A stretch of DNA of 64,000 nucleotides from Spirochaetia bacterium. GTDB lineage: Bacteria > Spirochaetota > Spirochaetia > DSM-27196 > Salinispiraceae. The position numbers and the translations under genes are program-made. Shown in pieces: positions 1,910-60,144 of this stretch; the stretch's first letter is position 1, and each line of letters begins with the position of its first letter. A model generated the notes under the pieces. That model was given only the letters and a program-made list of their open reading frames with translations. It did no database searches and was not told the origin of the DNA. The stretch lies in the NCBI GenBank assembly GCA_038204425.1, contig JBBRCZ010000002.1:192001-256000 (forward strand), written 5' to 3'.

Positions 1910-4285
1910 ATGAAGACCATTTTGATTGTCGAAGATGATGCCTCAATTGCCATGACGGAAAAAATCCAGCTTGAGATCGCTGGCTATGAAGTCAAAGTCC
2001 TGTCAAAGGGCGAAGAAGCAGTTTCTTACCTTGCTGACCAAAGTCGCAAAGTTGATTTGGTCTTGATGGACATTGACTTGGGCTCGGGCATAGATGGTGC
2101 CGAAGCGGCACGTAGAATTTTAGCTTTTCGCGACATTCCAGTGGTTTTTATTTCTGCACACAGTGATGCTTTAGTTATTGCGCGCACAGACTCTATCACC
2201 TCTTACGGCTATATCGCCAAAAATTCGGCCGCAAGTGTGGTTCTTGCTTCGATAGGCATGGCGTTTAAACTATTTGATGCCTACCAAGACATTGCACGCC
2301 AGAAACGAACAATTGAAATCAAGAATGAAGAGTTGGAAGCTTCTCGTTACAACAACGTGCTACAAGAACGCCAGTTTGCTGAGCTGTTTAACAAAATTTC
2401 TATAGGACTGATTGTTATATCGACTGAGGATCAAGGCCAGACTTTTGTCCTTAGAGATCTCAATCCTTCTGCCGAGCGGATCAATAAACTTCCCAGGTCA
2501 AGCGCCCTTGGTCTTGAGCTCAAAGATGCGCTTCCTGGCATCAAAGATATGGCATTGCAGGCTGTAATAAACAGAGTTTGGAAAACAGGGAAGTCACAAG
2601 ACTTGCAAGCCAGTTTGTATTCTGACGACAAGGTGTCTTTGTTACTTAAGTTTGAGGTCTACAAACTGCCTTTAGGACAAATAGTAATGGTCTATGAAGA
2701 CGTTACCCAAGAACGATTGGCAGAACTTGAGATCCGTCGGCTCAATCGTTTGTATTCGTTTGTTAGCCAAATCAACCAGATGGTGACGCGCACTAAGACT
2801 AAGGAATTGATCCTGACCGAAGCATGTAGAATCGCCGTGGATTTTGGACAGTTTCATTTTGCCTGGGCGGCACTGGTTGACCAGGATAGCAATACGCTCA
2901 ATCCGCTTGCATCTTCAGGTAGCGACAAAGGCTATGTTGATGCGATTGCGAATCTCGGCTTGGACCTTGGACAAAACCAAAGCACCCAAAACCTTGCACC
3001 AGCTCTAAGGGCTGTTTGGAACAAAGAGCTGGTAGTCTGCAACGATATCGACAGTTCAGAAAATGGTTCAACCTGGGCAAATGAAGCCTATTTAAGAGAC
3101 TTTCGCTCGTGCATAGCCATGCCAGTTCTTGTCAATCAACAAGTACTTGCTGTTTTTTCTCTTTATACCAACGAGATATATTACTTTAACGAATCCGAGT
3201 TAAAACTGGTAGAAGGCGTTTGTCGGGACTTAGCCTATGCAATTTCTGTTTGTATACTGGAAGATGAAAAAGTCCAAGATGCCCAAGCGCTAAAGGCAAA
3301 TGAGGAACGTTATCGACTTCTTTTTGAGAGCATTGCACAAGGCTTTGCCCTGCATCAAGTAATTGAGAATGAACAAGGAATAGCAGTCAGTTACCGCTTC
3401 CTGAGCGTAAATCCGGCCTTTGAAAAAATGACAGGCATCAAGGCAGCCGATATCGTAGGCAAAAGTGTGCATGAGGTATTTCCTCAAGTTGAAAATCATT
3501 GGCTAGAGGCTTACAGCAAGGTGGCGCAAACGGGTGAACCTATCCATATGGAAAATTACTCGGCAGATATTGGCAAGCACTTTGAAACCTGGGTCTATTC
3601 GCCCCAAAAAGGGCGCTTTGCGGTTGTATTTTCTGACATTACCGCTCGCAAAATAGCCAATGAGTCCCTCAAGAACTTAATATCCCAAAAAGAAATACTA
3701 CTTAAAGAACTGCAACACCGCGTCAAAAACAACCTGAGCGTGGTATCGAGTCTGCTCTATTTAGAAAAGAATCAACTTAAAGACGAGCATAGCCAAGTAG
3801 TTTTTACCAACGCAATTTCACGAATTCAGACAATGGCAGGAATCTACGAGCAGTTGAGCTTGTCCGAACAACTGGGTACCGTGGACCTTAGCGTTTACTT
3901 AGGCAACCTTGCTCGTATGGTACTTTCTGCCTATCGTATTGATACCAGCAAAATCAAGTTGGAATGCAAAGTCGAGCCAATTCATCTTGATTCCAGCCGA
4001 GCAGTACTTCTTGGTTTGATCGCCAACGAGTTGATAGCAAACGCCGTTAAGTATGCTTTTACCAAGCGAAAAGAAGGCTGCATCACCATAATGTTAAAGC
4101 AAATCCATAGCAATATTTGTCTGACGGTTTTTGACAATGGCGATGGCATGCCTGAGCCCGTCCATGCAAACGAAAGCAAGAGCATCGGCTTGGATTTGGT
4201 TCGCATGCTTGCAGACCAGCTGCAGGCCAGCCTGTATTTTTATCTCGAATCGGGCAGTAAGATCGTTCTAGAATTTGCCCTCTAA
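1910..4285 (+). CDS. Hybrid sensor histidine kinase: receiver-PAS-GAF-PAS-HisKA_2/HATPase
   Basis: N-terminal ILIVEDD...LMDIDL receiver; ELQHRVKNNL H-box; NELIANAVKYAF and DNGDG boxes; RBS GGAG upstream. Confidence 0.9.
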   Translation: MKTILIVEDDASIAMTEKIQLEIAGYEVKVLSKGEEAVSYLADQSRKVDLVLMDIDLGSGIDGAEAARRILAFRDIPVVFISAHSDALVIARTDSITSYGYIAKNSAASVVLASIGMAFKLFDAYQDIARQKRTIEIKNEELEASRYNNVLQERQFAELFNKISIGLIVISTEDQGQTFVLRDLNPSAERINKLPRSSALGLELKDALPGIKDMALQAVINRVWKTGKSQDLQASLYSDDKVSLLLKFEVYKLPLGQIVMVYEDVTQERLAELEIRRLNRLYSFVSQINQMVTRTKTKELILTEACRIAVDFGQFHFAWAALVDQDSNTLNPLASSGSDKGYVDAIANLGLDLGQNQSTQNLAPALRAVWNKELVVCNDIDSSENGSTWANEAYLRDFRSCIAMPVLVNQQVLAVFSLYTNEIYYFNESELKLVEGVCRDLAYAISVCILEDEKVQDAQALKANEERYRLLFESIAQGFALHQVIENEQGIAVSYRFLSVNPAFEKMTGIKAADIVGKSVHEVFPQVENHWLEAYSKVAQTGEPIHMENYSADIGKHFETWVYSPQKGRFAVVFSDITARKIANESLKNLISQKEILLKELQHRVKNNLSVVSSLLYLEKNQLKDEHSQVVFTNAISRIQTMAGIYEQLSLSEQLGTVDLSVYLGNLARMVLSAYRIDTSKIKLECKVEPIHLDSSRAVLLGLIANELIANAVKYAFTKRKEGCITIMLKQIHSNICLTVFDNGDGMPEPVHANESKSIGLDLVRMLADQLQASLYFYLESGSKIVLEFAL

Positions 4286-4295
4286 TGGAGTAACC

Positions 4296-5417
4296 ATGCC
4301 CAACAAAGAAGAAATTAAACGCTACCGAGCCAACCTACAGGCCGAACGCGAAGCAGTGTTTCTCTACAATCGCTTAGCCGACAGTGAAGCGGTGGCGCCT
4401 CTCAAAGAAGTATACCAAAAACTCGCGCTATGTGAGGCCAAACATGTTGCGGTCTGGGAAGCTAAACTTATTGACGCAGGACTTGAACCAGGACCGTTTA
4501 AACCGGGGATTAAGCCGCGGATCTTGGCATTTCTGTCACGCCGCGCCGGGGCTGCGGCTGTGGCACCCTTGATTGCCGCTATAGAAAAGGATGCAGCCAA
4601 TGAATACGCTGGCCAGAATTTTGTAGAAGCAATAGCGATGGACAAAGAAGAAAAGTCGCACGCACGCGTCTTTAGCTATTTAGCACGCCATGCCGACGGT
4701 GTGGAAGGCGCACAAGTTGCCCGGCTTGAAGGGCGACACAAAGCGGGTGGTAACGCCTTGCGTGCGGGTGTACTAGGCGCCAACGATGGTCTGATTAGTG
4801 TTTTTTCTTTGGTGATGGGTGTGGCCGGAACCGGTGCTGACAACCAAGCACTCCTAATCACTGGCGGAGCCGGACTTTTGGCGGGAGCCTTGTCGATGGC
4901 TATGGGCGAGTGGTTGTCGGTACAAAATGCTCGTGAGTTGTATCAAAACCAACTCAAAATAGAAGCTCAAGAACTTGAAGAAGCGCCCGAAGAAGAGCGT
5001 GAAGAATTGATACTAATTTATCAAGCCAAAGGGTTAGACTCAGAAACGGCAACAAAAATGGCGGATCGACTCCTACTTGACAAGACCCAGGCCCTAGACA
5101 CACTCGCACGAGAAGAACTCGCTATTGACCCGGCCGAACTTGGCGGCTCGGCCTGGGAGGCAGCATTTACCTCATTTGTGCTTTTTTGTCTTGGTGCACT
5201 GTTTCCTGTTTTGCCGTATTTTTTTGCATCAGGATCACTTGGTATCGTAGTAAGTGCAGTAAGTTCTGCACTTGGATTGTTTGTTTTGGGACTCTTGTCT
5301 AGCCTAATGAACGGACTTAACTGGCTTTGGTCGGGACTGCGCCAAGTCCTATTTGGCGTGGCAGCGGGTGCAATAACGTATGGCATTGGTACTTTGATAG
5401 GTGTCAGTTTGGGATAG
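4296..5417 (+). CDS. VIT1/CCC1 Fe/Mn transporter with N-terminal rubrerythrin/ferritin-like domain
   Basis: ExxH pairs (CEAKH, EEKSH); LRAGVLGANDGLIS and AGALSMAMGEWLSV VIT1 motifs; ATG 4296 follows GGAG. Confidence 0.9.
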   Translation: MPNKEEIKRYRANLQAEREAVFLYNRLADSEAVAPLKEVYQKLALCEAKHVAVWEAKLIDAGLEPGPFKPGIKPRILAFLSRRAGAAAVAPLIAAIEKDAANEYAGQNFVEAIAMDKEEKSHARVFSYLARHADGVEGAQVARLEGRHKAGGNALRAGVLGANDGLISVFSLVMGVAGTGADNQALLITGGAGLLAGALSMAMGEWLSVQNARELYQNQLKIEAQELEEAPEEEREELILIYQAKGLDSETATKMADRLLLDKTQALDTLAREELAIDPAELGGSAWEAAFTSFVLFCLGALFPVLPYFFASGSLGIVVSAVSSALGLFVLGLLSSLMNGLNWLWSGLRQVLFGVAAGAITYGIGTLIGVSLG

Positions 5418-5534
5418 GGATATTGGCCAACGATATTCTCCAATGATACTTGGCAATTACTCGTAGTTTAACGCAGTGATGGCAATACTCTAACAAATCA
5501 GCGTTAGATTCCCCTACCAGATGGGGGACTAGGC

Positions 5535-5882
5535 ATGAAGGCTTCGGCAAAGAAATTTGGAGAGACCGGCGCTGTACTCTTGTTGAGCGGAGAGATTGAC
5601 CTGTATTCCACCAGTGAACTTTGGAAGATGGTGTCAGGCATTCTTGAGCTCGGTCGAAAACATTTAATACTAGACGTGAGCGATGTGAACTACCTTGATA
5701 GCTCAGGTGTTGGGGTAGTCATCCGACTATTGCAAGAACTCAAAAAGCAGGGTGGTAAACTATTGGTGGCAGGTCTGCAAGGTTCGCCTAGGCAAGTTTT
5801 GCAGATGTCTAACATCATAAGTCTTTTGCAGCTCTGTGACAATGTAGAACAGGGCCGAGCCATGCTTGGCGAAGCAATTTAA
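5535..5882 (+). CDS. STAS-domain anti-sigma factor antagonist (RsbV/SpoIIAA-like)
   Basis: LSGEIDLY...LDVSDVNYLDSSGVG with the phosphorylatable Ser. Confidence 0.9.
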   Translation: MKASAKKFGETGAVLLLSGEIDLYSTSELWKMVSGILELGRKHLILDVSDVNYLDSSGVGVVIRLLQELKKQGGKLLVAGLQGSPRQVLQMSNIISLLQLCDNVEQGRAMLGEAI

Positions 5883-5895
5883 AAAAGGATAAGGG

Positions 5896-6456
5896 ATGTT
5901 TATACCGCGCAAAATTATCATCGATGACCGCAACGAACTCTTTGACGCAAAAGGCATGAAGTATGTAGAATTTCCATCCGACTTTTCGCAGATCCGAGTT
6001 TACACTGCGCAGATCTTAGAAAAAGCTCCTGAGACTTTTTTAGAAGGCAACCTGCTGCATCAACAGTTGTCAGAAATTATTAAGAACGGCATCAAACATG
6101 GCAACAGGTCGGACCCCAGCAAAAAAATTAAAATCTGGTTTGACCTGCGTAAGCGAGCGCGCTTTATCGTAGAGGATGAAGGAGAGGGTTTCGTGCATTT
6201 GGAAGAATGGAATGAGTTTTTCTTTAAACGACAGAAAGCTCTCCATGAGGCCGATTTTGATACTTTTTTGCAGCTAGCCAACTACCAAGGCCCAACAAGC
6301 GACAACACCGACGGTGGCAACTCTTTGATCGCCGCTCTAGAATACTGGAACGGTGGTTTTATCTTTGGTGGCAAACGCAACAAAGTTGGCGTAGTGCGTT
6401 GGTTTAGCGGCGGAAGCAGTCGTAGCGAAAATGAGAATGGAAGCAGCAATGTCTGA
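5896..6456 (+). CDS. Anti-sigma factor / Ser kinase, HATPase_c_2 (RsbW/SpoIIAB-like)
   Basis: FPSDF N-terminus; SEIIKNGIKHGN N-box; VEDEGEGF G1 box. Confidence 0.8.
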   Translation: MFIPRKIIIDDRNELFDAKGMKYVEFPSDFSQIRVYTAQILEKAPETFLEGNLLHQQLSEIIKNGIKHGNRSDPSKKIKIWFDLRKRARFIVEDEGEGFVHLEEWNEFFFKRQKALHEADFDTFLQLANYQGPTSDNTDGGNSLIAALEYWNGGFIFGGKRNKVGVVRWFSGGSSRSENENGSSNV

Positions 6457-7279
6457 AAATGCAAGCCTCTTACAGAGGGCCCGCCACAGCTACACGGCTA
6501 CAATCCGTCAGCTTGAACCAAAGACGATACTGCAAACGCGTAAACTCTCGGTTTTGTTTGACAATGGACTTTACGGGTGTCGTGATATATCCATTAGTTT
6601 TTTTACCAATGCCATCACTTCGATAATTGGACCATCTGGCTGTGGCAAGTCTACCTTCCTCAAGGCTCTCAATCGTCTGCATGACGACCACGCACAGACC
6701 AAGGTGAGCGGTCAGGTAATGTTAGACGGCGTGGATATCTATAGCAAAGCGATAGATCCTATTGTTTTACGACGACGTATTGGGATGATATTTCAAAGAC
6801 CCTATCCTATTCCCCATTTGTCAATATTTGACAATGTGGCGGTTGGCTTGACACTTGTCGGTATCAAAAAGAAGCGTATGGTGCATGAGCAGGTCGAACA
6901 ATCGCTAAGGCGCGCTGCAGTATGGAATGAGGTAAAAGACAGACTAAGGGAACCAGCACTATCATTATCTGGTGGCCAGCAACAGCGCCTGTGTATCGCC
7001 AGAGCCTTGGCAATTGAGCCTGAAGTTCTATTGCTTGATGAGCCAACCAGTGCTCTCGATCCGATAGCTACCAAAATAGTAGAGGAACTATTGACCGAGC
7101 TCAAAAAGACCATAGGTATTGTTATGGTGACTCATTCGATGAACCAAGCCGCCAGAGTTAGTGATAGGACCGCCCTCTTTTTTGCAGGTGAAGTGATGGA
7201 ATACGGACCGACCGACATCATGTTTACGCGACCAGAAAAACAAATTACCTTGGATTATATAAATGGCCGAATTGAATAA
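6449..7279 (+). CDS. pstB: Phosphate ABC transporter ATP-binding protein (alternative start 6431)
   Basis: IIGPSGCGKSTFLKALNRLHD, LRRRIGMIFQRP, SIFDNVA, LSGGQQQRLCIARALAIEPEVLLLDEPTSALDPIAT, VTHSMNQAARVSD, and a DYINGR C-terminus typical of PstB. Confidence 0.92.
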   Translation: MSENASLLQRARHSYTATIRQLEPKTILQTRKLSVLFDNGLYGCRDISISFFTNAITSIIGPSGCGKSTFLKALNRLHDDHAQTKVSGQVMLDGVDIYSKAIDPIVLRRRIGMIFQRPYPIPHLSIFDNVAVGLTLVGIKKKRMVHEQVEQSLRRAAVWNEVKDRLREPALSLSGGQQQRLCIARALAIEPEVLLLDEPTSALDPIATKIVEELLTELKKTIGIVMVTHSMNQAARVSDRTALFFAGEVMEYGPTDIMFTRPEKQITLDYINGRIE

Positions 7280-8507
7280 ATTAGTACTAGTTAAACCCGC
7301 AACGTTAGAGCATACTGTGTTAGAGCTCTTACCTCGACTTAAGGGCAACAAAGTCTTTCGCAAGCACCCTTCCGAAAAAGTGCATGGGCAGTCTATTCTC
7401 AAAGTTGTTACCCACTTCTTTACTGTCCACGCACTTGACCCGATAGAAGACATCGCTCGAGATTTTGAGGCCTTCCCAAAAGTGCTCGCTTTGGGAGTTT
7501 TGGATGATAAAGATCGCCTCATTGGATTGATAGACCGCAGTCAGTTTTTTAATGAGCTTGGTCAGCCTTTTGGACGTGATGTTTTAGTCAAAAAGCCAGC
7601 TTTGGCCATCGCTGAAGAAATCACTAATTTCTATTTTAACAAGAGTATTTTTTCTGTTGCCATCGAGCTTGATTCCAAGGATTTGGTCCAAGACAAAGTC
7701 TATTTCTTTGGTTTGACTGACGCTCAAGGACGATTTGCTGGGCTATTCTCGTCGATGGACCTGTTACGCTACTTGTCAAACGTAACGCAGCAAGACATAA
7801 GTCTGGCTGGTCAGTTGCAAGAGCGCCTAGTCAAAGAGAAACAGGCTGTTGAGGAAAAAAACTTCAGCTTTTACGGTTTTTCTCAATACGCCAAAGGTAT
7901 GGGCGGTGACTTTTATGGCATGTATCCAATTGGCGACGATCGTTGGTTTTTTACCATTTGTGATGTCTCAGGCAAAGGGGTTGCAGCTTCGGTTATTACC
8001 AGCATGTTGTGGGGTATGTTTAGACTGTACGACTGGCGTAAGGGACTCAAACACCTGATCCAAGAGGTCAATAAGGCGCTGATTCAAACCTTTCATTTGG
8101 AAAAATATGTCACTGGAGTTTTTGGCTTTTACGACGCCTCTAGCCGCAAGATCAAGCTTGCCGACATGGGGCATAGCATGGCCTATATTGTTCGCGACGG
8201 CAAAATTACCCACATCAATGGACCACACATCAACTTGCCAATTGGCCTAGAACTGGACTTGGATCCAAATATGATAAGCATAAAGCTTCAGCAAAGTGAC
8301 AGCTTGTTTTTTATGACTGACGGACTAGTAGAACAAGAGAACGCACAAGGGCAAACGCTAGAAGCCAAACAGTGGATCAAACGCCTACTACCGTTGGTAG
8401 AGAAAGACGCTGACCCACGAGACGCTATGCTTAGTTTGTTTAATGAGTTTCGCAAAGGCATACCGCAGCAGGACGACATAACTGCCATGGTTATGCAGAT
8501 CCGCTAA
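7263..8507 (+). CDS. PP2C/SpoIIE (RsbU-like) phosphatase with N-terminal CBS-like pair
   Basis: MGGDFY, ICDVSGKGVAAS, MGH, FMTDGL and QQDDIT PP2C motifs; N-terminal LGVLDDKDRLIGLIDR CBS-like segment. Confidence 0.88.
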   Translation: MAELNKLVLVKPATLEHTVLELLPRLKGNKVFRKHPSEKVHGQSILKVVTHFFTVHALDPIEDIARDFEAFPKVLALGVLDDKDRLIGLIDRSQFFNELGQPFGRDVLVKKPALAIAEEITNFYFNKSIFSVAIELDSKDLVQDKVYFFGLTDAQGRFAGLFSSMDLLRYLSNVTQQDISLAGQLQERLVKEKQAVEEKNFSFYGFSQYAKGMGGDFYGMYPIGDDRWFFTICDVSGKGVAASVITSMLWGMFRLYDWRKGLKHLIQEVNKALIQTFHLEKYVTGVFGFYDASSRKIKLADMGHSMAYIVRDGKITHINGPHINLPIGLELDLDPNMISIKLQQSDSLFFMTDGLVEQENAQGQTLEAKQWIKRLLPLVEKDADPRDAMLSLFNEFRKGIPQQDDITAMVMQIR

Positions 8508-9691: not shown

Positions 9692-11896
9692 ATGAAAATT
9701 GACCTTAAACTGGTGCAGCGCAACGCGCTGAGCGGTGTCTTGGTGTCGTTTGTGGCGTTGCCTCTTGCGGTGGGCTTTGGTGTCGCAGCGTTTGCGCCCC
9801 TCGGTCCGGCTTACGCACCCATGGGTGCAGTTGCCGGTCTGATTGGCGCTATCATGAGCGGTTTTTTTGCATCTCTTGCCGGTGGCTGTCCTTCGCAAGT
9901 TACCGGGCCAACAGGTCCCATGTCGGTGGTGGCTCGTACGGCTATTGCTACTATTATTGCTGCACCACACCTAGCGTCACTGCCTGAGGATCAGCGTGTG
10001 GCGGTTACACTCTTTCTATTTGGAGTAACCGTTCTGCTCGGTGGCGTGGTTGAAGTCTTGCTTGGTGTTTCCCGCGTGGGCCAGCTGATCCGCTACATTC
10101 CTTATCCAGTGTTGGCCGGATTTATGAACGGTGTATCAATTCTTGTGGTCGTAACCCAGATCCGCCCGCTCTTGGGCGTAGCCAGCAACACACCCTGGTC
10201 GGAACTCGTTGCAGGGTGGTCTGTCGAACAAAGTGCAGTACTTGTGGTGGGTGTGGTTGCGGCACTGGCAACTTGGATTTTGCCAAAATTTTCGCGCCGA
10301 CTTCCGGGAGCTTTGCTGGCACTTACCTTGGGTACCGCGTTATTCCTTGCTCTGGGTAACGCTTGGTTGCCCAAACTTATAGAAGGAGAGACCAACCTCT
10401 GGATCGTTGGCACCATTCCTTCTGTGGTACCACTACCACAGTTGTTGCTGGCTCTGCCAAAGGTGATCGGGGATCTTAAACTTGACTTGCTAGGATTGAT
10501 ATTACAGCAGGCTGTGCTTTTGGGTTTGCTGGGCGCAATTGATACCTTGCTTACTTCACTTATTGCGGACTTTAAAACACACACACGTCACAACAGCAAT
10601 CGAGAACTGATGGGACAAGGCCTTGGTAACATCATCTCCGGGCTTTTTGGCGGCTTGCCGGGAGCAGGTGCAACCGTCCGTACTCTGGTAAACATTGACA
10701 ATGGTGGCAGCAATAAGATTGCCGGCATGGTTCATGCGCTGGTTCTGCTTTCTATCCTTGTTTTTTTGGGGCCGCTCGCACGTTGGATACCTTTGGCTGC
10801 ACTTGCAGGAGTTCTGCTGGTGACCGCGTTTAAAATGATTGATGTCTGGAGTGTTTCAATGGCGCGCAAACGTTCCTTGCGCGAAGATAGTATCGTCTTG
10901 TGGTCGGTTACAGCGCTTACCGTCGCTGTTGACCTTGTTTTTGCCGTTGCCATAGGGCTTGCACTTGCTGGTGCGCTTTATATAAAAAATCAAACCAAGA
11001 CAAGCGTTATTCACCGCTTGAGTACTGGTGCAGTAATGCGCTCACGGCGCAAAAGAAGCGAGAACCAAACTGCGCTACTCGACAGTCTTGCCGAGCCAAT
11101 TCGCATTGCTCAACTCGAAGGCAGTCTCTTTTTTGGCACTGCTGATGACTTTCTCGCCGAGTTTAACCGATCCTTGGTACAGGGGCGCATTCTGATTCTA
11201 GATCTTGCGCGAGTCCGATCGATTGACCTGACAGGCGGACGCCTGCTCGGCGACTTGTACGACCGAGTAATAGCTGGGGGGGCACGGCTGGTGTTTTCTG
11301 GTTTAGCTGAAAAAGCCCCGCTGCGTCGTTTCTTGCAAGAACTTGGTCTTGCCAAAGATGACCAACTCTGGTTCCCGACGCTTGATGCAGCGCTGGAAGA
11401 TGCAGAGAATACCTTGCTGGTCCAACATGATGCTTTTGAGCACAAAAGCTCTGACCAAGTAGGAATTGCGGACTTTTATGCCTGCGCAGGCTTTGATCAT
11501 AAAGATTGCACCGCCTTGGGAAGCTATCTTGTGCGTGGGACAGCAGCGACAGGTGACTTGCTCTTTGAAGCAGGAAAAGCGAGTGATCAAATATGGTTTA
11601 TTGTGTCCGGTCAGGTAGAAGTCTTTCTGCAAGGCCAGTATGGAGCCATGGAAGTAAGCGTCTACACTGCAGCTTGCCATTGCGGGGCGGCTGCCTTTAT
11701 CGAGCAGCACGTGCGCGCCTACGGAGCCCGAGTGAGGGAAGAGCTAAGCTTTATGCGCCTTGACCGTGCCGAATTTCAACGCATGAGCCAGCAAGAACCC
11801 GAGCTTGCACTTAGACTACTAGGTAATCTTTCCCACGAACTTGCCCAACGGCTATCGCACGCAGTACAAGAAAATCGAATGCTTGCTGCAACCTAA
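9692..11896 (+). CDS. SulP family anion transporter with STAS and C-terminal cyclic-nucleotide-binding domain
   Basis: VALPLAVGFG, GPTGP, NRELMGQGLGN, GATVRT; STAS EGSLFFG...SIDLTG; C-terminal cNMP-like LFEAGKASDQIWFIVSGQVEV. Confidence 0.9.
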   Translation: MKIDLKLVQRNALSGVLVSFVALPLAVGFGVAAFAPLGPAYAPMGAVAGLIGAIMSGFFASLAGGCPSQVTGPTGPMSVVARTAIATIIAAPHLASLPEDQRVAVTLFLFGVTVLLGGVVEVLLGVSRVGQLIRYIPYPVLAGFMNGVSILVVVTQIRPLLGVASNTPWSELVAGWSVEQSAVLVVGVVAALATWILPKFSRRLPGALLALTLGTALFLALGNAWLPKLIEGETNLWIVGTIPSVVPLPQLLLALPKVIGDLKLDLLGLILQQAVLLGLLGAIDTLLTSLIADFKTHTRHNSNRELMGQGLGNIISGLFGGLPGAGATVRTLVNIDNGGSNKIAGMVHALVLLSILVFLGPLARWIPLAALAGVLLVTAFKMIDVWSVSMARKRSLREDSIVLWSVTALTVAVDLVFAVAIGLALAGALYIKNQTKTSVIHRLSTGAVMRSRRKRSENQTALLDSLAEPIRIAQLEGSLFFGTADDFLAEFNRSLVQGRILILDLARVRSIDLTGGRLLGDLYDRVIAGGARLVFSGLAEKAPLRRFLQELGLAKDDQLWFPTLDAALEDAENTLLVQHDAFEHKSSDQVGIADFYACAGFDHKDCTALGSYLVRGTAATGDLLFEAGKASDQIWFIVSGQVEVFLQGQYGAMEVSVYTAACHCGAAAFIEQHVRAYGARVREELSFMRLDRAEFQRMSQQEPELALRLLGNLSHELAQRLSHAVQENRMLAAT

Positions 11897-12509: not shown

Positions 12510-12538
12510 TTGACAAATCCTATGGTAGATTCTATGCT
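12510..12538 (+). promoter_or_regulatory. Sigma70-type promoter
   Basis: TTGACA-17 bp-TATGCT, upstream of RBS GGGGGAGG and ATG 12561. Confidence 0.65.
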
Positions 12539-12560
12539 TGGAAAAAGAAAGGGGGAGGGA

Positions 12561-13121
12561 ATGACCATGCATTCTATAAAAGTCGAAAAAATAGTCAATG
12601 AACTCACTAGAGAAATAGTTGACTACAATTTCCCTACATTTGGTGATCTGTATAGCACTCAGTTAGAATTTTGGGCGGCGATAAAAAAATTTCATCGTGA
12701 TATTCTCGATTATGCAAGAACTATTATTGATAAGGAGGCTACGGACAAAGAAGACGAAGTTCTTAATGGTGATCCAGAAAGTCATTATACAAGGCTTGCT
12801 GAGAAAGCGCGATTGAGTAACAGGCAAGTCAAAAAATATATCGACGCATGCGTCGAAAACAGTGAAGCACTTTTTTTAGACCACCCGTTACCCTTTGTCT
12901 TGGATCAAAAAATTGCTAGCGGACGAGTAGAATTTAAGTATCGAGGCAGAGGTTTTTTTGCCAATTATGACGTGCAAGGTTTTCTCGATGGTCATAAACC
13001 GGTGGAGAACCCCGCTATTTATTCTTTTGATGCCACCTATCATGAATATCGTGATCACGGAAAAATTCATAGGGACCATGCACCTGCGGTAAGAATTGAC
13101 TATCCCGCGACACTTACTTAA
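12561..13121 (+). CDS. Hypothetical protein with C-terminal GKIHRD-PA module (paralog of 15243 and 15527 ORFs)
   Basis: Strong RBS; PAIYSFDATYHEYRDHGKIHRDHAPAV. Confidence 0.7.
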   Translation: MTMHSIKVEKIVNELTREIVDYNFPTFGDLYSTQLEFWAAIKKFHRDILDYARTIIDKEATDKEDEVLNGDPESHYTRLAEKARLSNRQVKKYIDACVENSEALFLDHPLPFVLDQKIASGRVEFKYRGRGFFANYDVQGFLDGHKPVENPAIYSFDATYHEYRDHGKIHRDHAPAVRIDYPATLT

Positions 13122-13231
13122 ACTTGCTTACAGACAATTTACCTTAGGTTTTTTGATATTTGTTGGCAGATTTTGGTATCCCGGTTCTAATGGCGCATGA
13201 TTTCGTTGCAAAAATAAAGGAGAAGTATCGT

Positions 13232-13846
13232 ATGAAAATAGTTTTTAAGGGTATTGTTTTGATTACCGTGTTGTCTATGGTTTTGGCTATGTCTGGCTGT
13301 TTTACTCTCGCGTCCAATCTAATCTTAAAAAATTAAGTTTATGAAGTCAAGTCCGATAGTGGCATAGTCTACGCTGTAGCCCAGTTTGAGGTTTACAGAG
13401 TACTGTTTTCTTTTGCCAAAATGCGCATAGGTGTTAACAAAGCTGCACCTCAAGATGGGGTTAGCATTTGGTTAAAGTATGCGCATAGTTCTGACATTTA
13501 TTTTGGGGCTGTCACCTTTGATGTGGATGGCATAAAAACCAAATTGGTGGAACTAAGCAAATCCCAGGCAACACGTGTTGATGAATTGTACGTGGGAGAA
13601 GGATTCTTTGGCTTTAGCGCAGAGACTATTGCCGAGGATGTTAAGGGCAAACTCAAAGATCTTGTGGATTCGATAGTTAATGGCAAAAAAGTTTCGGTCA
13701 AAGTTGAATGCGATTACAATGCATCTAGTCTCAAACTAGGTAGACAAAAGAATGCTCAAACTTATACCTTTACTGCAAATGATCAAATGATTCTTGCTGA
13801 CTGGTCCACCAGAATAGGCTCACCAGTTCCTGCTCAGTCCCAATAG
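13232..13846 (+). pseudogene. Lipoprotein interrupted by a single in-frame TAA
   Basis: RBS AAGGAG, MKIVFKGIVLITVLSMVLAMSG-C lipobox; TAA at 13334-13336, after which the same frame continues into the 13421-13846 ORF. Confidence 0.75.
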
Positions 13847-13868
13847 TTCCTAATAAATAGAACCAAGC

Positions 13869-13913
13869 AATCAGAATGTCTCATACAAGACATTCTGATT
13901 TTTTTGCTTTTTT
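13869..13913 (+). terminator. Intrinsic terminator between convergent genes
   Basis: AATCAGAATGTCT-cataca-AGACATTCTGATT perfect 13-bp stem followed by T-runs. Confidence 0.85.
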
Positions 13914-14912
13914 TTACTCATTTTTGTTGAGCAATATTTGCAGTCCATCAAGTACTATCAATAAATTCTGATCGGTATTCCTTTTGTAAGCATCGTCTTT
14001 ATCAACTCTTGGACCGGTTACATCTGGTTTTTTTTTACCAAAGCACCAAATGCCGTTAAGCGGCAAACCTATCAATTCTGATTTTAATTCTCCATCTTCG
14101 TTTTTAAGATAGCTAGCTTTGACTCTTCTAACGGGGTTAAAGCGTCTTAAGGTAAATTCTTGTGCGTTGCCAGGGTCCTTGGTCGATTGAAACAGAAGAT
14201 CAACGGCAATCTCGCGCACCAACTCGATCTGTTTTTCTACGTTTTTAAAAAAATAGCGGCCTTCATCGTTTTGAGTCATTAAGCTATTTTGCTCTGACTT
14301 TTGAGAAGCACTACATTCTTTAAGAAAAGCACTAGGAATTGACTGGCTATGATTAATGAGCTCTATCAAATGAGGTTGCTTCTGAATCAAAATCAAACCC
14401 AACCAGCTTGTACCTTGTTGTTGTAAAAATCTAGTCAGTAGACTATTGATCTGATAGAAATCAGGTCCGTTGTAACCGTCGCTAGTGTAGGTAAAGTACC
14501 GGTCTATTTTTTTAGTAAGCGACGACAAATGTTCTTTCCAGCTTGACCCACTAGCTCCAAGATACACCCGTATCGAATCTACATTTTTTAAAATGCTGGG
14601 GCAGCGATAGTTTGGAGGGATGCTCGTATTGACAATAGGTTTTCCAATTTGCTTGACTAGGTATTTATCGATGCTTTTCGTAATGGACTGCCAATGGTCC
14701 AGCAAAACCTGTACGTTTTCGTCTTCTCCGGCATATTTTATAGAATAGGCGTCCTTAAATTCGTTTGAATGGGGTGCATTGTAAAGTACAGATGTTTTTT
14801 CAAATTTAAACGCGTTATTTTTTAGGTCGTCAATTTCTTTAAAGCAATCCAAAACATAAAAATCGTTGTTCCTAATACTGCGTCTTGTTCCTTCATATTT
14901 TCTGTTTCGCAT
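13914..14912 (-). CDS. Hypothetical protein, possible remote Tus (replication terminus site-binding protein) homolog
   Basis: Intact 332-aa ORF; collinear motif similarity to E. coli Tus judged by eye (see findings). Confidence 0.55.
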   Translation of the reverse strand: MRNRKYEGTRRSIRNNDFYVLDCFKEIDDLKNNAFKFEKTSVLYNAPHSNEFKDAYSIKYAGEDENVQVLLDHWQSITKSIDKYLVKQIGKPIVNTSIPPNYRCPSILKNVDSIRVYLGASGSSWKEHLSSLTKKIDRYFTYTSDGYNGPDFYQINSLLTRFLQQQGTSWLGLILIQKQPHLIELINHSQSIPSAFLKECSASQKSEQNSLMTQNDEGRYFFKNVEKQIELVREIAVDLLFQSTKDPGNAQEFTLRRFNPVRRVKASYLKNEDGELKSELIGLPLNGIWCFGKKKPDVTGPRVDKDDAYKRNTDQNLLIVLDGLQILLNKNE

Positions 14913-15204
14913 TTCGTATTATCTCAATTATCGTAAATAAATCAAGTGCTAAAACCAGAAGCACTAGGTGCATTCAAACAGCCATTTTTCGTCCCGTGTA
15001 TATCGTCTTGTAATACCCTTAAAGTATACTGCCCGATGAGGTATCTTAGTCTCCAGAAGGTGGCGATAGAGCAGGGCTCTAATGAAATAGAGGTACTCTT
15101 GGAGATACTGGTCTCAGTTGTGATAACTAAGTATTTCCCTAGGTTACCAGCTTAGCCTATTTAAACAACTTTAGAATGGCATTTAAGCTTGGATCAATAC
15201 TACT

Positions 15205-15500
15205 AAAAAGAAGCAAAAGAGAACCAAGAGCCTTTTATTGGTATGCACAGCTATAAGTGTGGGGACAAACTCTATTTTGTTCACGGCAATACAGATGGTC
15301 TTTTTGAAGATTGTGATGACCAAGATCTTCTGGCTATATTTGATCTAGATTGCACCTATAGCGAATATCAAAAAAATGGATATTTGCACAGGGAGGATAG
15401 ACTGCCAGCTGGCATAGTCTGGTATGACGCTCAAATTTGAGAAAATTTTTGGGTAGATCATAAAAAAATTGATTCGCATGAAACAGAAATTCCAATATAA
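15205..15500 (+). pseudogene. Broken paralog of the 12561/15527 family
   Basis: KEAKENQEPFIGMHSYK...AIFDLDCTYSEYQKNGYLHREDRLPA; in-frame TGA at 15438-15440 followed by ENFWVDHKKI, matching the EHWINN end of 15527. Confidence 0.65.
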
Positions 15501-15526
15501 TTAATCAAAAAAACAGGAGGTGCTAA

Positions 15527-15901
15527 ATGGGAGCACTAACATACAAGGAACCAGAACAATCAAACTCAAGCAGTCGATTTTTGTATTTACAGCAATTTCT
15601 AAAAGAGGACAAGACACCAATGATGGGCAGCGTCACTTACAAGGACCCAAAGAATGGTGTCGAGTACGTTCTCCAACTGGACAGAGATGGCTATGTGCAT
15701 GGCCACGAAGAAGGTGACATTCCTGCTATTAAGAGCAAAGATGGAACCTATGCAGAATTTCGCAACCACGGCAAACTGCACCGAGGCTTTCAACGCCCAG
15801 CAATAGTTATTGAAACAGAAACCGAGTTAATCCAAGAACACTGGATCAATAATGTTGTTACCTTAATCAAACATTACGACAAGAGCAAGATCAAAGTTTG
15901 A
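15527..15901 (+). CDS. Hypothetical protein with GKLHR-PA module
   Basis: RBS AGGAGG; PAIKSKDGTYAEFRNHGKLHRGFQRPAIV; internal duplication MGALTYKEP / MGSVTYKDP. Confidence 0.75.
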   Translation: MGALTYKEPEQSNSSSRFLYLQQFLKEDKTPMMGSVTYKDPKNGVEYVLQLDRDGYVHGHEEGDIPAIKSKDGTYAEFRNHGKLHRGFQRPAIVIETETELIQEHWINNVVTLIKHYDKSKIKV

Positions 15902-15911
15902 AAGATGATGG

Positions 15912-16243
15912 TGTCTATCGTAACATTAAATTACCTAAAAATATTAAACTGGCATGGACAAAAACGTCGTCGGAGTTCTCCCTATTAATCTTGGAAAATG
16001 GTATTAGACGACGAACCCTGTACAATAGGTATATGCGGGGAGAGAGATACGCTTAATATTAACCAGTCTGACCAAATTAAAGAACTACAAAGGGCAAGAT
16101 TTGCACCTTCCGAAATCGCTGAACGAGGGGATGTTAACCGTAAAACGGTGAACAAATACATGATTATCGTTGACTACAGGCCAACTTTAGAAAACCAGAA
16201 AGTAGAAAAATCTAAGTTTGCCCGTTTGATACAAGCGCGGTAA
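15912..16243 (+). mobile_element. IS21-family remnant (putative left end plus N-terminal IstA HTH)
   Basis: QIKELQRARFAPSEIAERGDVNRKTVNKYM is a typical IstA N-terminus; TGTCTATCG at 15912 is a possible IRL. Confidence 0.65.
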
Positions 16244-17884: not shown

Positions 17885-18772
17885 TCAATCCGCACTGTCG
17901 GCTTCATCCATAAGCAACGTGCGAACCGACTGTAATTCTTTAAGTCGATCCTGATTTACTTCCGGGTAACTCATACCAAGCCCATTCAGCGTTTCGATGA
18001 TAATTTTGGAGACAATCAAACGGGCATTATGCTTATTATCGGCGGGGACAACATACCAAGGCGCTTCCTTTGTGCTGGTTGCACTCAGGCATTCCTGGTA
18101 CGCCGCTTGGTAATTACCCCAAAATTTTCGCTCTTGGATGTCAGCAAGGCTGAATTTCCAGTTCTTGTCTGGCTCATCAATCCGCGCCAGAAAACGATTG
18201 CTCTGTTCCGCTTTGGACAAGTGCAGGAAGAATTTAATAATGCGGGTTCCGTTTTGATAAAGATGATGCTCCATATCAACGATAGAACGAAAGCGCTCTT
18301 TCCAAACAGCCTGCCCGTCGAGCAACTCAATTGGGAGTCCTTGACTGTGAAGAATCTCCGGATGGACGCGGACGATGAGCACATCCTCATAGTAGGAACG
18401 GTTGAAGATCCCGATGCGCCCGCGCTCTGGTAAACGGCGGGTTGTGCGCCAAAGAAAATCATGGTCTAGTTCTTCAGCGGTGGGTTCTTTAAAGCTGAAA
18501 ACCTGGCAACCTTGTGGGTTGACACCGGACATGACGTGCCGGATAGTACCGTCTTTGCCGGCAGCGTCCATACCCTGGAAAATCAACAGCAATGCATATT
18601 GATTGGAGGCATAATGCAAGCGTTGTAGAGAACTCAACTCATCCACGTGTTCTTCCAGAATATTTTTATAATTTTTCTTCGATTTGAAAAAAGGCTTCAC
18701 AATAGTTGGCCATTCCCTCAGTTCTACTCTTTTACCGGCGTGGACACAAAAGTCATCTGATTTAATTTTCAT
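17885..18772 (-). CDS. ppk2: Polyphosphate kinase 2 family (class III-type polyphosphate:nucleotide phosphotransferase)
   Basis: [54 protein letters not shown]. Confidence 0.92.
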
Positions 18773-40422: not shown

Positions 40423-40569
40423 CTGCAAAGCCTAATGCATCCAAGACTCTTGGGCAATGCAGATAAAAACCGTATACTTTTATCAGAAACTGTGGTTAGT
40501 ATCACGTTAAGGTTTCTTGCTCAGACACTGGTAAAAAATGAATGATTGAAGGTATACAGGTCAATAACC

Positions 40570-57698: not shown

Positions 57699-58049
57699 AT
57701 GAGACACCCCTACCAATTGTTTAAGGCCTTTGCTGACGAAACGCGTTTGAGAATTTTGAGCCTACTGTCCCACAGTGAGATGTGTGTATCTGATATCGAT
57801 ATGATTCTCAAAGTTGGCCAGTCTAAAGTCTCTCGCCATCTAGATTATCTCAAAAAGACTGAATTGGTGACCAATAGAAGGTCTGGCGCGATGGTATTTT
57901 ATCGCTTGGACTTAGAAGAGCAGACCATACAACACCAAATTTTACAGCTCTGGATAGTGTGGGGCAAACAGACCCAAACGGGAATTCAGGACTGGGATTT
58001 GCATCAGTCCATGCACACGCGTAGTTTTAAAGAATACGACAGTGTTTAA
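57699..58049 (+). CDS. ArsR/SmtB family transcriptional regulator
   Basis: FKAFADETRLRILSLL, EMCVSD, QSKVSRHL..LK, RRSG..VFYRL. Confidence 0.9.
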   Translation: MRHPYQLFKAFADETRLRILSLLSHSEMCVSDIDMILKVGQSKVSRHLDYLKKTELVTNRRSGAMVFYRLDLEEQTIQHQILQLWIVWGKQTQTGIQDWDLHQSMHTRSFKEYDSV

Positions 58050-60144
58050 GCCAAAACTAATAGAGACATTACGGGCTGGGTATACACATCAGCTCTTTTT
58101 TAAAGATCTTTCGGCTGGTCTTATCGTTGGAGTTGTCGCCATTCCCTTGGCGCTCGCTTTTGCTATTGCCTCAGGACTTAGCCCCACGGTTGGTCTTTTG
58201 ACCGCCGTCATTGGTGGCTTTTTGATTTCGGCCTTGGGTGGATCGTATGTGCAAATCGGCGGGCCGACTGGTGCCTTTATTGTCATAATTTACGGCATCA
58301 TGACCAAGTACGGAAGCCAAGGTTTGATTATTGCCACCATTATGGCAGGCGTTATGCTGCTTGTAATTGGCTTTGCTAAGTTGGGTTCAATAATCAAGTT
58401 TATCCCATTTCCGGTGATTATTGGGTTTACCTCTGGTATTGCTGTTATTATTTTGAGCTCACAGATCAATGATTTTTTTGGTCTTGGACTTAGCAAGTTA
58501 CCCAGTGAGTTTTTTGCAAAGTGGGCAGTCTTGCTACCTTCCATGGTGCACCTGAATTGGCCCACAAGCATTCTCTCACTCGCAACGGTGGTCGTAATCG
58601 TCGTCTTAGGAAAAATCAGCAAAAAAATCCCTGCAGCACTAGTGGCGTTAGTCCTTGGTACCATCGTGGTGGTGATTTTTGGCCTGCCAGTCGACACTAT
58701 CGGCTCTCGTTTTGGCGCCATTGCGGGCAAGATACCGATGCCCAGCTTACCAGCATTTGATAGTAATCTTTTGGCAATCTTGTTTATGCCTGCACTCAGC
58801 ATTGCAATGCTTGGCGCGATTGAGTCTTTGTTGTCAGCGGTGGTTGCCGACGGCATGACCGGCAAGAAACACGATTCTAATACCGAACTTATCGGTCAAG
58901 GTTTTGCCAACCTAGTCAGCGGCTTGTTTGGTGGACTACCAGTGACTGGTGCGATAGCAAGGACCGCCACCAACGTCAAGTCAGGCGGACAAACGCCGGT
59001 AGCGGGCATCATACATGCGGTGTTTTTGTTGGGTGTTTTGCTATTTCTCAGCCCACTGACTGCCTATATTCCGCTAGCAAGTTTGGCAGGCATTTTGGCT
59101 ACGGTTGCTTACAATATGAGTGAGCAACACGTCTTTAGGTTGCTGCTCAAAGGTCCGCGTGGTGACATTGTGGCGCTCCTAGTTACCTTTTTGTTGACGG
59201 TCATGCTCGACCTCACTATTGCCATTCCTGCCGGCATCTTCCTTAGTCTGATAGTCTTTGTAGCCAAGATGAGTTCTGGCGCCAAAGTTACCTTGCACAC
59301 CGGACGCTTTAGTGACCTAAGTCCAGAAGTGGATCCGTTTGGCCTGGCTGCACTGATTATTCCTGATGGGGTTGAGGTTTTGACCATTGATGGACCGCTA
59401 TTTTTTGGGGCCGCAGAAGCAATTAAAGAAGAGCTTAGCCGAGGCCATCACCGATCTAAAGTTTTGATTATTGGCTTTAGAGCAGTGCCCTCAATTGATG
59501 CCAGTGGCGCCATGGTAATGAGGACCTTGTTAGCCAAAGCACAGTCAGACAAGAGGCCGATTATCATTTCTGGTCTACAGAAGAATGTTAAAGATGTCTT
59601 TGACAAAATTGGCCTCAGTCGAGAACTTGGTGCCGGAATGATGCAAGCTAACATGGTGCTTGCTATCGCCAAGTCAAACGAATTGCTAGGAATCGGCAAC
59701 TTTTCGCTAGTAGAAAAACTCAAGCGAGGCAGTTTTTTGACAGACCTGAGTTTTGAATCGGTACCGCAAGTGATAAAGGCTCTGGTGGATGCTCTGCCGC
59801 TGAGTACCGAGCAAAAAGAAGTCCTAGTTCAAAGCGTTATAGAACGAGAAAACATGGCTTCTACTGCCCTGGTGCCGATGATCGCCTACCCGCACCCCCA
59901 CCAGCAAAGACTTAACTCTGGCGTTGACGACTTTGTTGCTCTGGCCATACTAAAAGAAAGCACATCCAATTGGGACAAGCTCGACCACAAGGTCAAGTTG
60001 GTGGTTTTGATGGTGAGCAAGAGTTCTCAGGATCACCTCTTGACCTTTTCTGGCCTTGCGAGCTTACTCAATCGAGCTGAGTTTGTTGATAAATTGCTGC
60101 TGCAAACCAGCAAAGAACAAGTTATCATGCTGTTTGAGCGATAG
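58042..60144 (+). CDS. SulP family anion transporter with STAS and C-terminal PTS EIIA-like domain
   Basis: AIPLALAFAIASG, GGPTGAF, IESLLSAVVADG, GAIARTATN; STAS DGPLFFG; EIIA_2-like IERENMASTAL..IAYPH. Confidence 0.88.
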   Translation: MFKPKLIETLRAGYTHQLFFKDLSAGLIVGVVAIPLALAFAIASGLSPTVGLLTAVIGGFLISALGGSYVQIGGPTGAFIVIIYGIMTKYGSQGLIIATIMAGVMLLVIGFAKLGSIIKFIPFPVIIGFTSGIAVIILSSQINDFFGLGLSKLPSEFFAKWAVLLPSMVHLNWPTSILSLATVVVIVVLGKISKKIPAALVALVLGTIVVVIFGLPVDTIGSRFGAIAGKIPMPSLPAFDSNLLAILFMPALSIAMLGAIESLLSAVVADGMTGKKHDSNTELIGQGFANLVSGLFGGLPVTGAIARTATNVKSGGQTPVAGIIHAVFLLGVLLFLSPLTAYIPLASLAGILATVAYNMSEQHVFRLLLKGPRGDIVALLVTFLLTVMLDLTIAIPAGIFLSLIVFVAKMSSGAKVTLHTGRFSDLSPEVDPFGLAALIIPDGVEVLTIDGPLFFGAAEAIKEELSRGHHRSKVLIIGFRAVPSIDASGAMVMRTLLAKAQSDKRPIIISGLQKNVKDVFDKIGLSRELGAGMMQANMVLAIAKSNELLGIGNFSLVEKLKRGSFLTDLSFESVPQVIKALVDALPLSTEQKEVLVQSVIERENMASTALVPMIAYPHPHQQRLNSGVDDFVALAILKESTSNWDKLDHKVKLVVLMVSKSSQDHLLTFSGLASLLNRAEFVDKLLLQTSKEQVIMLFER

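Follow-up and report, generated by a model that had tools for sequence, protein, structure and literature searches.

The window analysed here, a stretch of 64,000 nucleotides from a contig of a Spirochaetia bacterium (JBBRCZ010000002.1, positions 192,001 to 256,000), contains four intact and adjacent open reading frames (ORFs) on its + strand, encoding a STAS protein, a serine kinase, a PstB-family ABC ATPase designated here PstB', and a phosphatase composed of a CBS pair and a PP2C domain (CBS-PP2C). An earlier note on the sequence had listed the same four proteins, and profile matches, motifs and fold models confirm them. The first gene (5535..5882, +) encodes a single-domain, RsbV/SpoIIAA-like STAS protein (TIGR00377, 63.8 bits against a cut-off of 53.45) with the motif YLDSSG and the phospho-acceptor Ser56. 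Residues D55-S56-x-G58 are invariant across 81 homologues, and the DS[ST]G motif was present in 126 of 127 STAS proteins. The second gene (5896..6456, +) encodes a GHKL kinase of RsbW/SpoIIAB fold from a spirochaete family, in a subclade (support 89) marked by MFIP...LLHQQ. At the sequence level, the HATPase_c and spIIAB profiles match weakly, under the spIIAB cut-off, while the structural model (pLDDT 75.6) finds SpoIIAB and RsbW as its best fold matches (1th8, 1l0o and 6m37, E-values 1e-5 to 3e-4). N64 of the N box, D94-G96-G98 of the DxGxG motif and G140-G141 are invariant in the homologues, and the protein is a SpoIIAB/RsbW-type Ser kinase of predicted activity.

The third gene (6449..7279, +) encodes PstB', a divergent PstB that clears the TIGR00972 cut-off by less than 1 bit (344 against 343.2 bits) and retains all ABC motifs, namely Walker A (G61-S68), Q116, LSGGQ (173-177), D197/E198, D204 and H229. 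Its start is most likely ATG 6449, which gives 276 aa, as in the public gene call, and an 8-nt overlap with the kinase stop. The fourth gene (7263..8507, +) encodes the CBS-pair phosphatase of the RsbU/SpoIIE family (SpoIIE, 3.9e-32), whose model consists of a CBS pair, a long linker helix of 26 residues (164-189) and a domain of PPM fold. All 81 homologues share the metal ligands D216, D234, D353, D404 and D405 without variation; the SpoIIE domain is found in 81 of them and the CBS domain in 75. The second CBS repeat carries the pattern G-h-h-S-x-x-D (G160/S163/D166), which we take to be that of a nucleotide site. The closest homologues measure 390-405 aa, and the first 30 residues of the 414-aa ORF are modelled at pLDDT 51-59; the true start may be GTG 7317, giving a protein of 396 aa and a short gap after pstB. 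The earlier note had pstB overlapping both neighbours: the overlap with the kinase stands, and that with the phosphatase is uncertain.

Contigs from two runs of another study cover 6090-7664 and 5712-6904 with zero differences, bridging the kinase-pstB-phosphatase and the STAS-kinase-pstB junctions, with no single listed piece covering the whole stretch. These independent contigs across the gene junctions rule out an assembly artefact. There is likewise no compositional sign of a recent horizontal insert (GC3 of 0.45-0.50 against a genome median of 0.46). Promoter and terminator scans gave results at chance level, and an atlas search with the CBS region of the phosphatase returned leads that were all under 0.9.

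The host genome is 95.6% complete. It carries two complete pstSCAB operons on contig C10, whose PstB proteins are 57% and 47% identical to PstB', together with phoU-phoB-phoR on C7, a phn operon, and a second PP2C-STAS-kinase cluster on C4. With these pst and pho genes located elsewhere, the pstB of the window is an extra, third copy beside a normal Pho system, and the two full operons rule out that it is the only pstB of the genome, displaced from pstSCA. The absence of pstS/C/A, phoU, phoBR and sigma factor genes, which the earlier note had reported for the window, holds for the larger ORFs scanned there. Seven sigma-70 matches were found in the genome. One has the length of RpoD; the six others, which were scanned, comprise three RpoD-like factors, one FliA/WhiG, one ECF and one without a family at 1e-25, and none of these six reaches TIGR02980. 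No cognate SigB/F/G-type sigma factor was found in the genome or the operon.

Distribution of the module and its Pho-box-like repeat

A kinase alignment served to collect relatives of the locus: of 95 genome loci and of 120 metagenome loci, the best 80 each were examined, the two sets overlapping in part. The STAS/kinase/CBS-PP2C trio is a widespread spirochaete module. In 140 of 148 loci the STAS gene lies 5' of the kinase; divergence of the phosphatase gene from the STAS-kinase pair is seen in 115 of 130. The recurrent neighbours include pstSCAB, phoU, phoB, phoR, phnE/H/M, ugp, alkaline and purple acid phosphatases and Na/Pi symporters, in addition to EAL/GGDEF proteins and an unnamed metallophosphoesterase-like family. 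Pho-type genes occur within 8 kb in 19/80 genome loci and 22/80 metagenome loci, compared with 128/2466 background windows; related loci are not independent, yet the neighbouring pst operons differ in type, side and strand. PhoB-like genes were present in all five genome records checked, which represent four genomes.

The motif search upstream of STAS identified an 11-bp direct repeat with the half-site Y-T-A/C-A-C, present in both orientations in the divergent promoter. The motif was retrained on 112 de-duplicated STAS promoters of relatives, with the window and its genome left out, and reached a log-likelihood of 529 against 62-70 on shuffled sequences; the box in 101 of these 112 promoters is a training-set figure and not an independent test. 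At 10 bits or more, the box was found in 18/18 pstS promoters, as opposed to 3/54 internal pstC/pstA regions and 0/17 regions of pyrD/rlmB/mtnN. Among 432 sites over 9 bits in the host genome, the phoU-phoB-phoR promoter ranks 3, pstC1 4, the phn operon 11 and pstS2 13, and ranks 1 and 2 lie away from known Pho genes. For comparison, 2.8% of its 1921 upstream regions reach 10 bits and 16.5% reach 5.4 bits.

Known Pho boxes have a period of 11 bp, and it is because of this period and of the targets of the repeat that PhoB would be expected to bind it. Since a motif obtained from STAS promoters also marks the pstS and phoU-phoB-phoR promoters, the module is most likely a PhoB target and not a bypass of PhoR. 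The earlier note had proposed such a bypass of PhoU/PhoR, a part of its interpretation that was not supported: a bypass for want of phoBR is ruled out by the presence of phoU-phoB-phoR, and these genes, along with the Pho-box-like repeat in the promoters of the relatives, place the module downstream of or beside PhoBR. It is very likely that this spirochaete module of CBS-PP2C, STAS protein and RsbW-fold kinase belongs to the Pho regulon and is induced by phosphorylated PhoB through the 11-bp repeats. The work also defines a candidate Pho box for spirochaetes.

In the window, a degenerate remnant of the repeat lies 5' of the STAS gene (5456..5495, +), scoring 5.4-5.9 bits against a median of 15.3 bits in the relatives, with two good half-sites 22 bp apart and a poor middle one. 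Good boxes are present at the two relatives that carry pstB', the loci L059 (14.6 bits) and L138 (13.2 bits). The box that would assign a promoter to the Pho regulon was found for the family and not for the promoter of the window, where control by PhoB is putative.

Other Pho-type boxes were observed in the same genome. The best of the genome (20.0 bits) lies in the window at 13459-13476 (-), inside an unannotated ORF, and a second (15.2 bits) at 40494-40511 (-) precedes a flavodoxin-like gene. Further boxes are found at C10:89063 (-), C9:60515 (-) and C20:5907 (+), one of them before an exported protein of unknown function and the other two before genes that we presume to encode RNase Y and PPK2.

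The metallophosphoesterase-like neighbours, a class to which we assign them provisionally, form a family of 350-390 aa with the motif DLHMGDG (L074:8573-9733, L149:9158-10222, L142:7945-9108 and, in the host genome, C5:73664-74767) and gave no Pfam/NCBIfam match at the thresholds used. Their gene stands beside the module in 15/80 and 21/80 loci, with a Pho-type box 5' of 20/33, and the family is a candidate for a new phosphate-starvation enzyme.

Descent and constraint of PstB'

A pstB gene directly behind the kinase was found, apart from the window, in 2 of the 136 loci with enough downstream DNA (L059 and L138). In all three loci seen as DNA, the start of pstB overlaps the stop of the kinase, by 8 nt in the window, 4 nt in L059 and 8 nt in L138. 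The neighbourhood considered in the earlier note is conserved to this extent: the kinase-pstB pair recurs in other spirochaetes, but the exact four-gene order is rare, the phosphatase being divergent in most loci and pstB following the kinase in so few.

Five additional close relatives (P0002, P0003, P0004, P0006 and P0007) came from a protein search, as did the L138 protein (P0027). In a tree of 41 chosen rows, prepared with more care than a quick tree that had left out 21 database rows, the proteins of the window and of L138 and the five database proteins form a clade (100/97), which the L059 copy joins at 88/94, a placement that is not firm. A recent duplication of the host's own pstB1 was rejected, its pairing with the window copy giving a p-AU of 3e-51. 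The PstB' lineage is separate from the operon pstB genes and has no pstA or pstC directly 5', the kinase occupying this position in the window, L059 and L138. The phylogeny suggested in the earlier note thus places the window copy in a distinct lineage, which is also under selection (see below).

For the proteins from the database, linkage was assessed through contigs of the same source and equal size. P0004 is matched in this way with kinase P0127 and phosphatase P0245 (27,628), P0007 with kinase P0175 and phosphatase P0249 (161,842), P0006 with kinase P0148 (2,744), P0027 with kinase P0150 (134,648), and P0003 with phosphatase P0246 (2,929). Such linkage is indirect, and the two short sizes (2,744 and 2,929) could coincide by chance. 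Taken together, about seven lineages appear to link PstB' to a single kinase subclade, three of them observed as DNA and four through equal-sized contigs. All PstB'-linked kinases fall within one subclade of 14 rows (support 89 in the quick tree), which also holds the loci L060 and L084. Searches for further PstB' copies found G022 alone among 99 genomes of the order, and none beyond the host genome among 401 genomes of the phylum, with 6 candidates scored per genome.

The frames of pstB' are open. Between the window copy and L138, codon positions 1/2/3 are identical at 0.60/0.76/0.33. Over the pstB' genes seen as DNA, third positions are saturated, and identity at second positions amounts to 73-76%. 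Within the clade, matches cover 78-92 of 100 invariant columns, compared with about 34-64% of variable ones, and 79-92 of 100 canonical PstB columns are kept, where canonical proteins have a median of 99. The clade is marked by an additional N-terminal helix with A11/Y15, by I114, H123, N232, a hydrophobic residue at 268, and by an acidic C-terminal end, G-x-[ILMF]-[DE] in place of GRFG, and the window copy carries several private substitutions. In a comparison of the host genome with G022, identity is 78% for the operon pstB1 and 57% for pstB'. Judged by these patterns, PstB' is a paralogue under altered but real constraint, consistent with purifying selection. In all likelihood this paralogue is an ancient acquisition of one subclade, retained since then under selection as a specialised subunit whose gene is translationally coupled to that of the kinase.

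The same data bear on the proposal that PstB' is a functionless leftover, either of a kinase-pstSCAB operon that lost pstSCA or of a recent duplication. A kinase followed by pstSCAB does exist at L111, L062 and L067, which makes such an origin plausible; pstB' has been lost in L060 and L084, and the window copy combines private substitutions with a decayed promoter box. Nevertheless, the open frames, the saturated third and conserved second codon positions, the excess of matches at invariant columns and the tree test against recent duplication largely refute this proposal, and we consider it very improbable.

A role in transport deserves more weight. PstB' may stand in for the usual ATPase subunit of the cell's PstCA, fully in a homodimer or partly in a heterodimer, and tune uptake during starvation, in which case the operon would be shared through Pho regulation only, with no signalling to the switch. 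Consistent with this, the catalytic motifs are intact and the PstB equivalog cut-off is passed, Pho genes of many kinds gather around the module, and both genomes that could be checked carry full pstSCAB operons and would supply the permeases. In Bacillus (pstBA/pstBB) and in streptococci, cells usually have two pstB genes. On the other side, every pst operon already has a pstB of its own, PstB' has remained coupled to the kinase across 51-73% identity without joining a permease operon, and its departure from the canonical columns is accompanied by shared changes at both termini. We regard the transport role as the leading alternative to a signalling function, possible though not probable.

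Two observations on related pstB genes may be added. Ordinary operon pstB genes in line with module genes (L031:3316-4083, and L111) have the H-loop variant HSMNQ, as does PstB'; they belong to another lineage, and convergence is possible. The locus L029 (G022:C10:1000-20999) is a 20-kb phosphate island with three pstB genes in total. It comprises pstSCAB, phosphonate ABC genes, pstB', the kinase, STAS and PP2C genes, a GtrA-like gene and a second pstSCAB, and further an unknown 219-aa gene, a Na/Pi cotransporter with a PhoU domain and an additional pstS.

Putative coupling of PstB' to the partner switch

Contact between PstB' and the phosphatase, the pair guessed in the earlier note, was modelled in a four-chain prediction with the STAS protein, the kinase, residues 30-414 of the phosphatase and PstB' as partner, alongside three controls. 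The prediction scored 0.51, compared with 0.00 for the best of the 3 controls; the runs share at least 91% of contacts, and the pLDDT of the partner is at least 83. When the PP2C was replaced and STAS, kinase and PstB' were kept, the score fell to 0.00, a result that carries no verdict on binding to STAS or kinase. In the calibration set, which was unlike the four-chain job, 116 of 157 solved pairs reached the mark, as did 2 of 215 mismatched pairs; 18 of these solved ones and both mismatches scored 0.60 or less. A pass at such a score is more often wrong than right unless the contact was likely beforehand, and the odds are raised modestly here because the pair had been named in advance and the genes adjoin in the window and probably in P0003/P0246. 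The prediction thus lends weak support to the guessed partner and gives no interface. In sum, the observation of the earlier note was confirmed and its interpretation partly supported, the interaction and the dependence on phosphate being putative.

We propose a Pho-regulon partner switch with PstB' as a dedicated input to the phosphatase, and assign this reading a probability of about 40%. Under phosphate starvation, phosphorylated PhoB would induce the trio through the repeats in the usually divergent promoter. PstB', in its ATP-bound or ATP-free form and either docked on the PstCA of the cell or free, would then bind the CBS pair or linker of the PP2C and set its dimerisation and activity, as RsbT does on RsbU. 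The PP2C, gated by the CBS pair, would strip phosphate from Ser56 of the STAS protein, and the dephosphorylated STAS protein would capture the kinase and free its target. The CBS pair probably also reads adenylates, so that modules without PstB' could still work. According to PMC12143880, a partner can activate PPM phosphatases by way of a coiled-coil linker, and PMC5775613 describes PstB conformations as carrying the phosphate signal. More tentatively, the duplicated ABC ATPase might have turned into a dedicated sensor subunit of a Ser/Thr phosphatase, sampling the conformation of Pst or the ATP/ADP/Pi balance and switching the CBS-PP2C accordingly.

Several observations weigh against this proposal. 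The rarity of pstB behind the kinase means that the module can do without PstB', and it is absent from L060 and L084, two of the four loci that make up its kinase subclade. PstB' has the kinase and not the phosphatase as its most constant neighbour, the latter being divergent in L059 and L138; four of the seven kinase-pstB' linkages come from equal-sized contigs, and P0002 has no kinase or phosphatase partner among the 120 proteins listed per search. Near the Q-loop and permease-docking region PstB' has kept N75, R76, R108, G112, Q116, P120, P122, N129 and G133, to which we ascribe a docking role by analogy with other importers and which fit transport equally well. The STAS promoter of the window has no significant box, and the majority of module loci have no Pho gene within 8 kb. 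A control set of 17 other STAS-kinase loci was unclean, with pst genes in 4/17 and a box of at least 10 bits in 5/17. Its positives all fall among ten loci with two STAS genes (pst genes in 4/10 against 0/7, a split made afterwards), so that the phosphate link could accompany the CBS-phosphatase more generally. Finally, besides being weak and giving no interface, the predicted contact could echo the NBD-CBS contacts that transporters of the OpuA/ProV type have.

The position of PstB' relative to the STAS protein allows a different arrangement, in which PstB' is the output of the switch and the dephosphorylated STAS protein binds and stabilises it in the manner of MlaB on MlaF, throttling phosphate uptake post-translationally. 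Mla is a close parallel in that a STAS protein and an ABC ATPase share one operon, and a preprint (bioRxiv 10.1101/2020.04.27.064196) proposes phospho-control for it, with MlaB binding the ATPase MlaF by its phospho-acceptor face and a phosphomimetic lowering binding. The Mla operon is not known to contain a kinase or phosphatase. The present locus differs in having a kinase and a phosphatase, in that its ATPase is a PstB, and in that the permease is encoded elsewhere. The constant STAS-kinase-pstB order in the three DNA loci and the failure to find a SigB/F/G-type factor as output would suit this arrangement, as would a weak MlaB match of the STAS protein (5e-09, far under the cut-off). The protein nonetheless matches the anti-sigma antagonist profile more strongly than that of MlaB and is conserved in the many loci without PstB', and we find a role of PstB' as output unlikely. 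PstB' might instead be a partner of the kinase, acting for instance as its inhibitor or as a sequestered target that replaces a sigma factor. The start-stop overlap in 3/3 DNA loci and the matching subgroups of the kinase and pstB trees are in line with this, but co-transcription alone explains both overlap and joint descent, and high conservation of the kinase extends to loci that have no PstB', leaving a partnership with the kinase quite improbable.

Returning to the proposed switch with PstB' as phosphatase input, its parts have known counterparts. As in the RsbU(RsbP)-RsbV-RsbW and SpoIIE-SpoIIAA-SpoIIAB systems of Bacillus, it combines a PPM phosphatase bearing a linker helix, a single STAS protein with DS(S/T)G and a GHKL kinase of SpoIIAB fold. 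It differs from them in the lack of a linked sigma factor and of any SigB/F/G-type factor found in the genome, in its CBS-pair sensor and Pho-box-like promoter, in a kinase that carries an insert and has GGNSL as its G2 box, and in a PstB paralogue in place of RsbT or RsbQ. With PstSCAB-PhoU-PhoR-PhoB it shares a PstB-family ATPase with intact motifs, whose best solved matches are E. coli PstB (9k3x, 9k3s); in contrast to that system, PstB' has no adjoining permease genes and a lineage of its own, and its proposed receiver is a Ser phosphatase instead of PhoU/PhoR. SiaABCD of Pseudomonas aeruginosa, reportedly a sigma-independent switch controlling a diguanylate cyclase (PMC8457831 and PMC7647112), is likewise a trio of PP2C, kinase and STAS protein without a sigma factor, and EAL/GGDEF genes are frequent neighbours of the present module. 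Here, however, there is no constant cyclase partner, the sensor domain is another, and a link to phosphate is added.

A widespread switch without a SigB-type target would have to act on something else. Candidates for the output are an RpoD-like sigma factor, a c-di-GMP enzyme, for which the Sia system is a precedent, and the Pst transporter itself; chlamydial RsbW is reported to bind the primary sigma factor (PMC4552016). In open-access full text of PubMed Central and bioRxiv, no account was found of a partner switch linked to Pho in spirochaetes, of a Pho box in these bacteria or of a PstB that stands alone next to a PP2C, in agreement with the earlier note, which did not recognise the arrangement as described. 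The families of the parts are known, and the combination and the specialised PstB are new within the literature searched. If the more tentative sensor reading is true, a second signalling branch would leave Pst, with partner switching replacing PhoU-PhoR, inside a Pho-regulon switch common in free-living and termite-gut-type spirochaetes. A PstB paralogue that travels with a phosphatase outside a transporter operon would reveal which PstB surfaces serve signalling, and it offers a small, soluble system of four proteins that can be rebuilt in vitro.

Further observations at the loci and in the window

A second arrangement, found at the loci L242-L252 within this taxonomic order, has a kinase gene and two STAS genes converging on the CBS-PP2C gene; in some genomes Pho-type boxes and nearby pst genes are present here too. 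A conserved 220-aa protein without a Pfam match is encoded 5' of a Na/Pi cotransporter gene adjoining pstSCAB (C10:17936-18598 in the host genome, L029:17126-17785, and L111).

Directly upstream of the module in the window and on the same strand lie a gene for a VIT1 transporter with a weak ferritin-like N-terminal match (4275-5417) and one for a receiver-GAF-PAS-HisKA_2 kinase (1910-4285); neither is among the annotated recurrent neighbours of the module loci. The region 12510-15901 holds several short ORFs, three of which were scanned without a Pfam match, and is possibly a small foreign insert; 3' of it, 15998-16243 may, as we presume, be a transposase fragment. A Polyphosphate kinase 2 gene (17885-18772, -) is located about 9 kb downstream of the module. 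The window also encodes two SulP-STAS fusions (9692-11896 and 58042-60144), one with a cyclic-nucleotide-binding domain and one with PTS EIIA.

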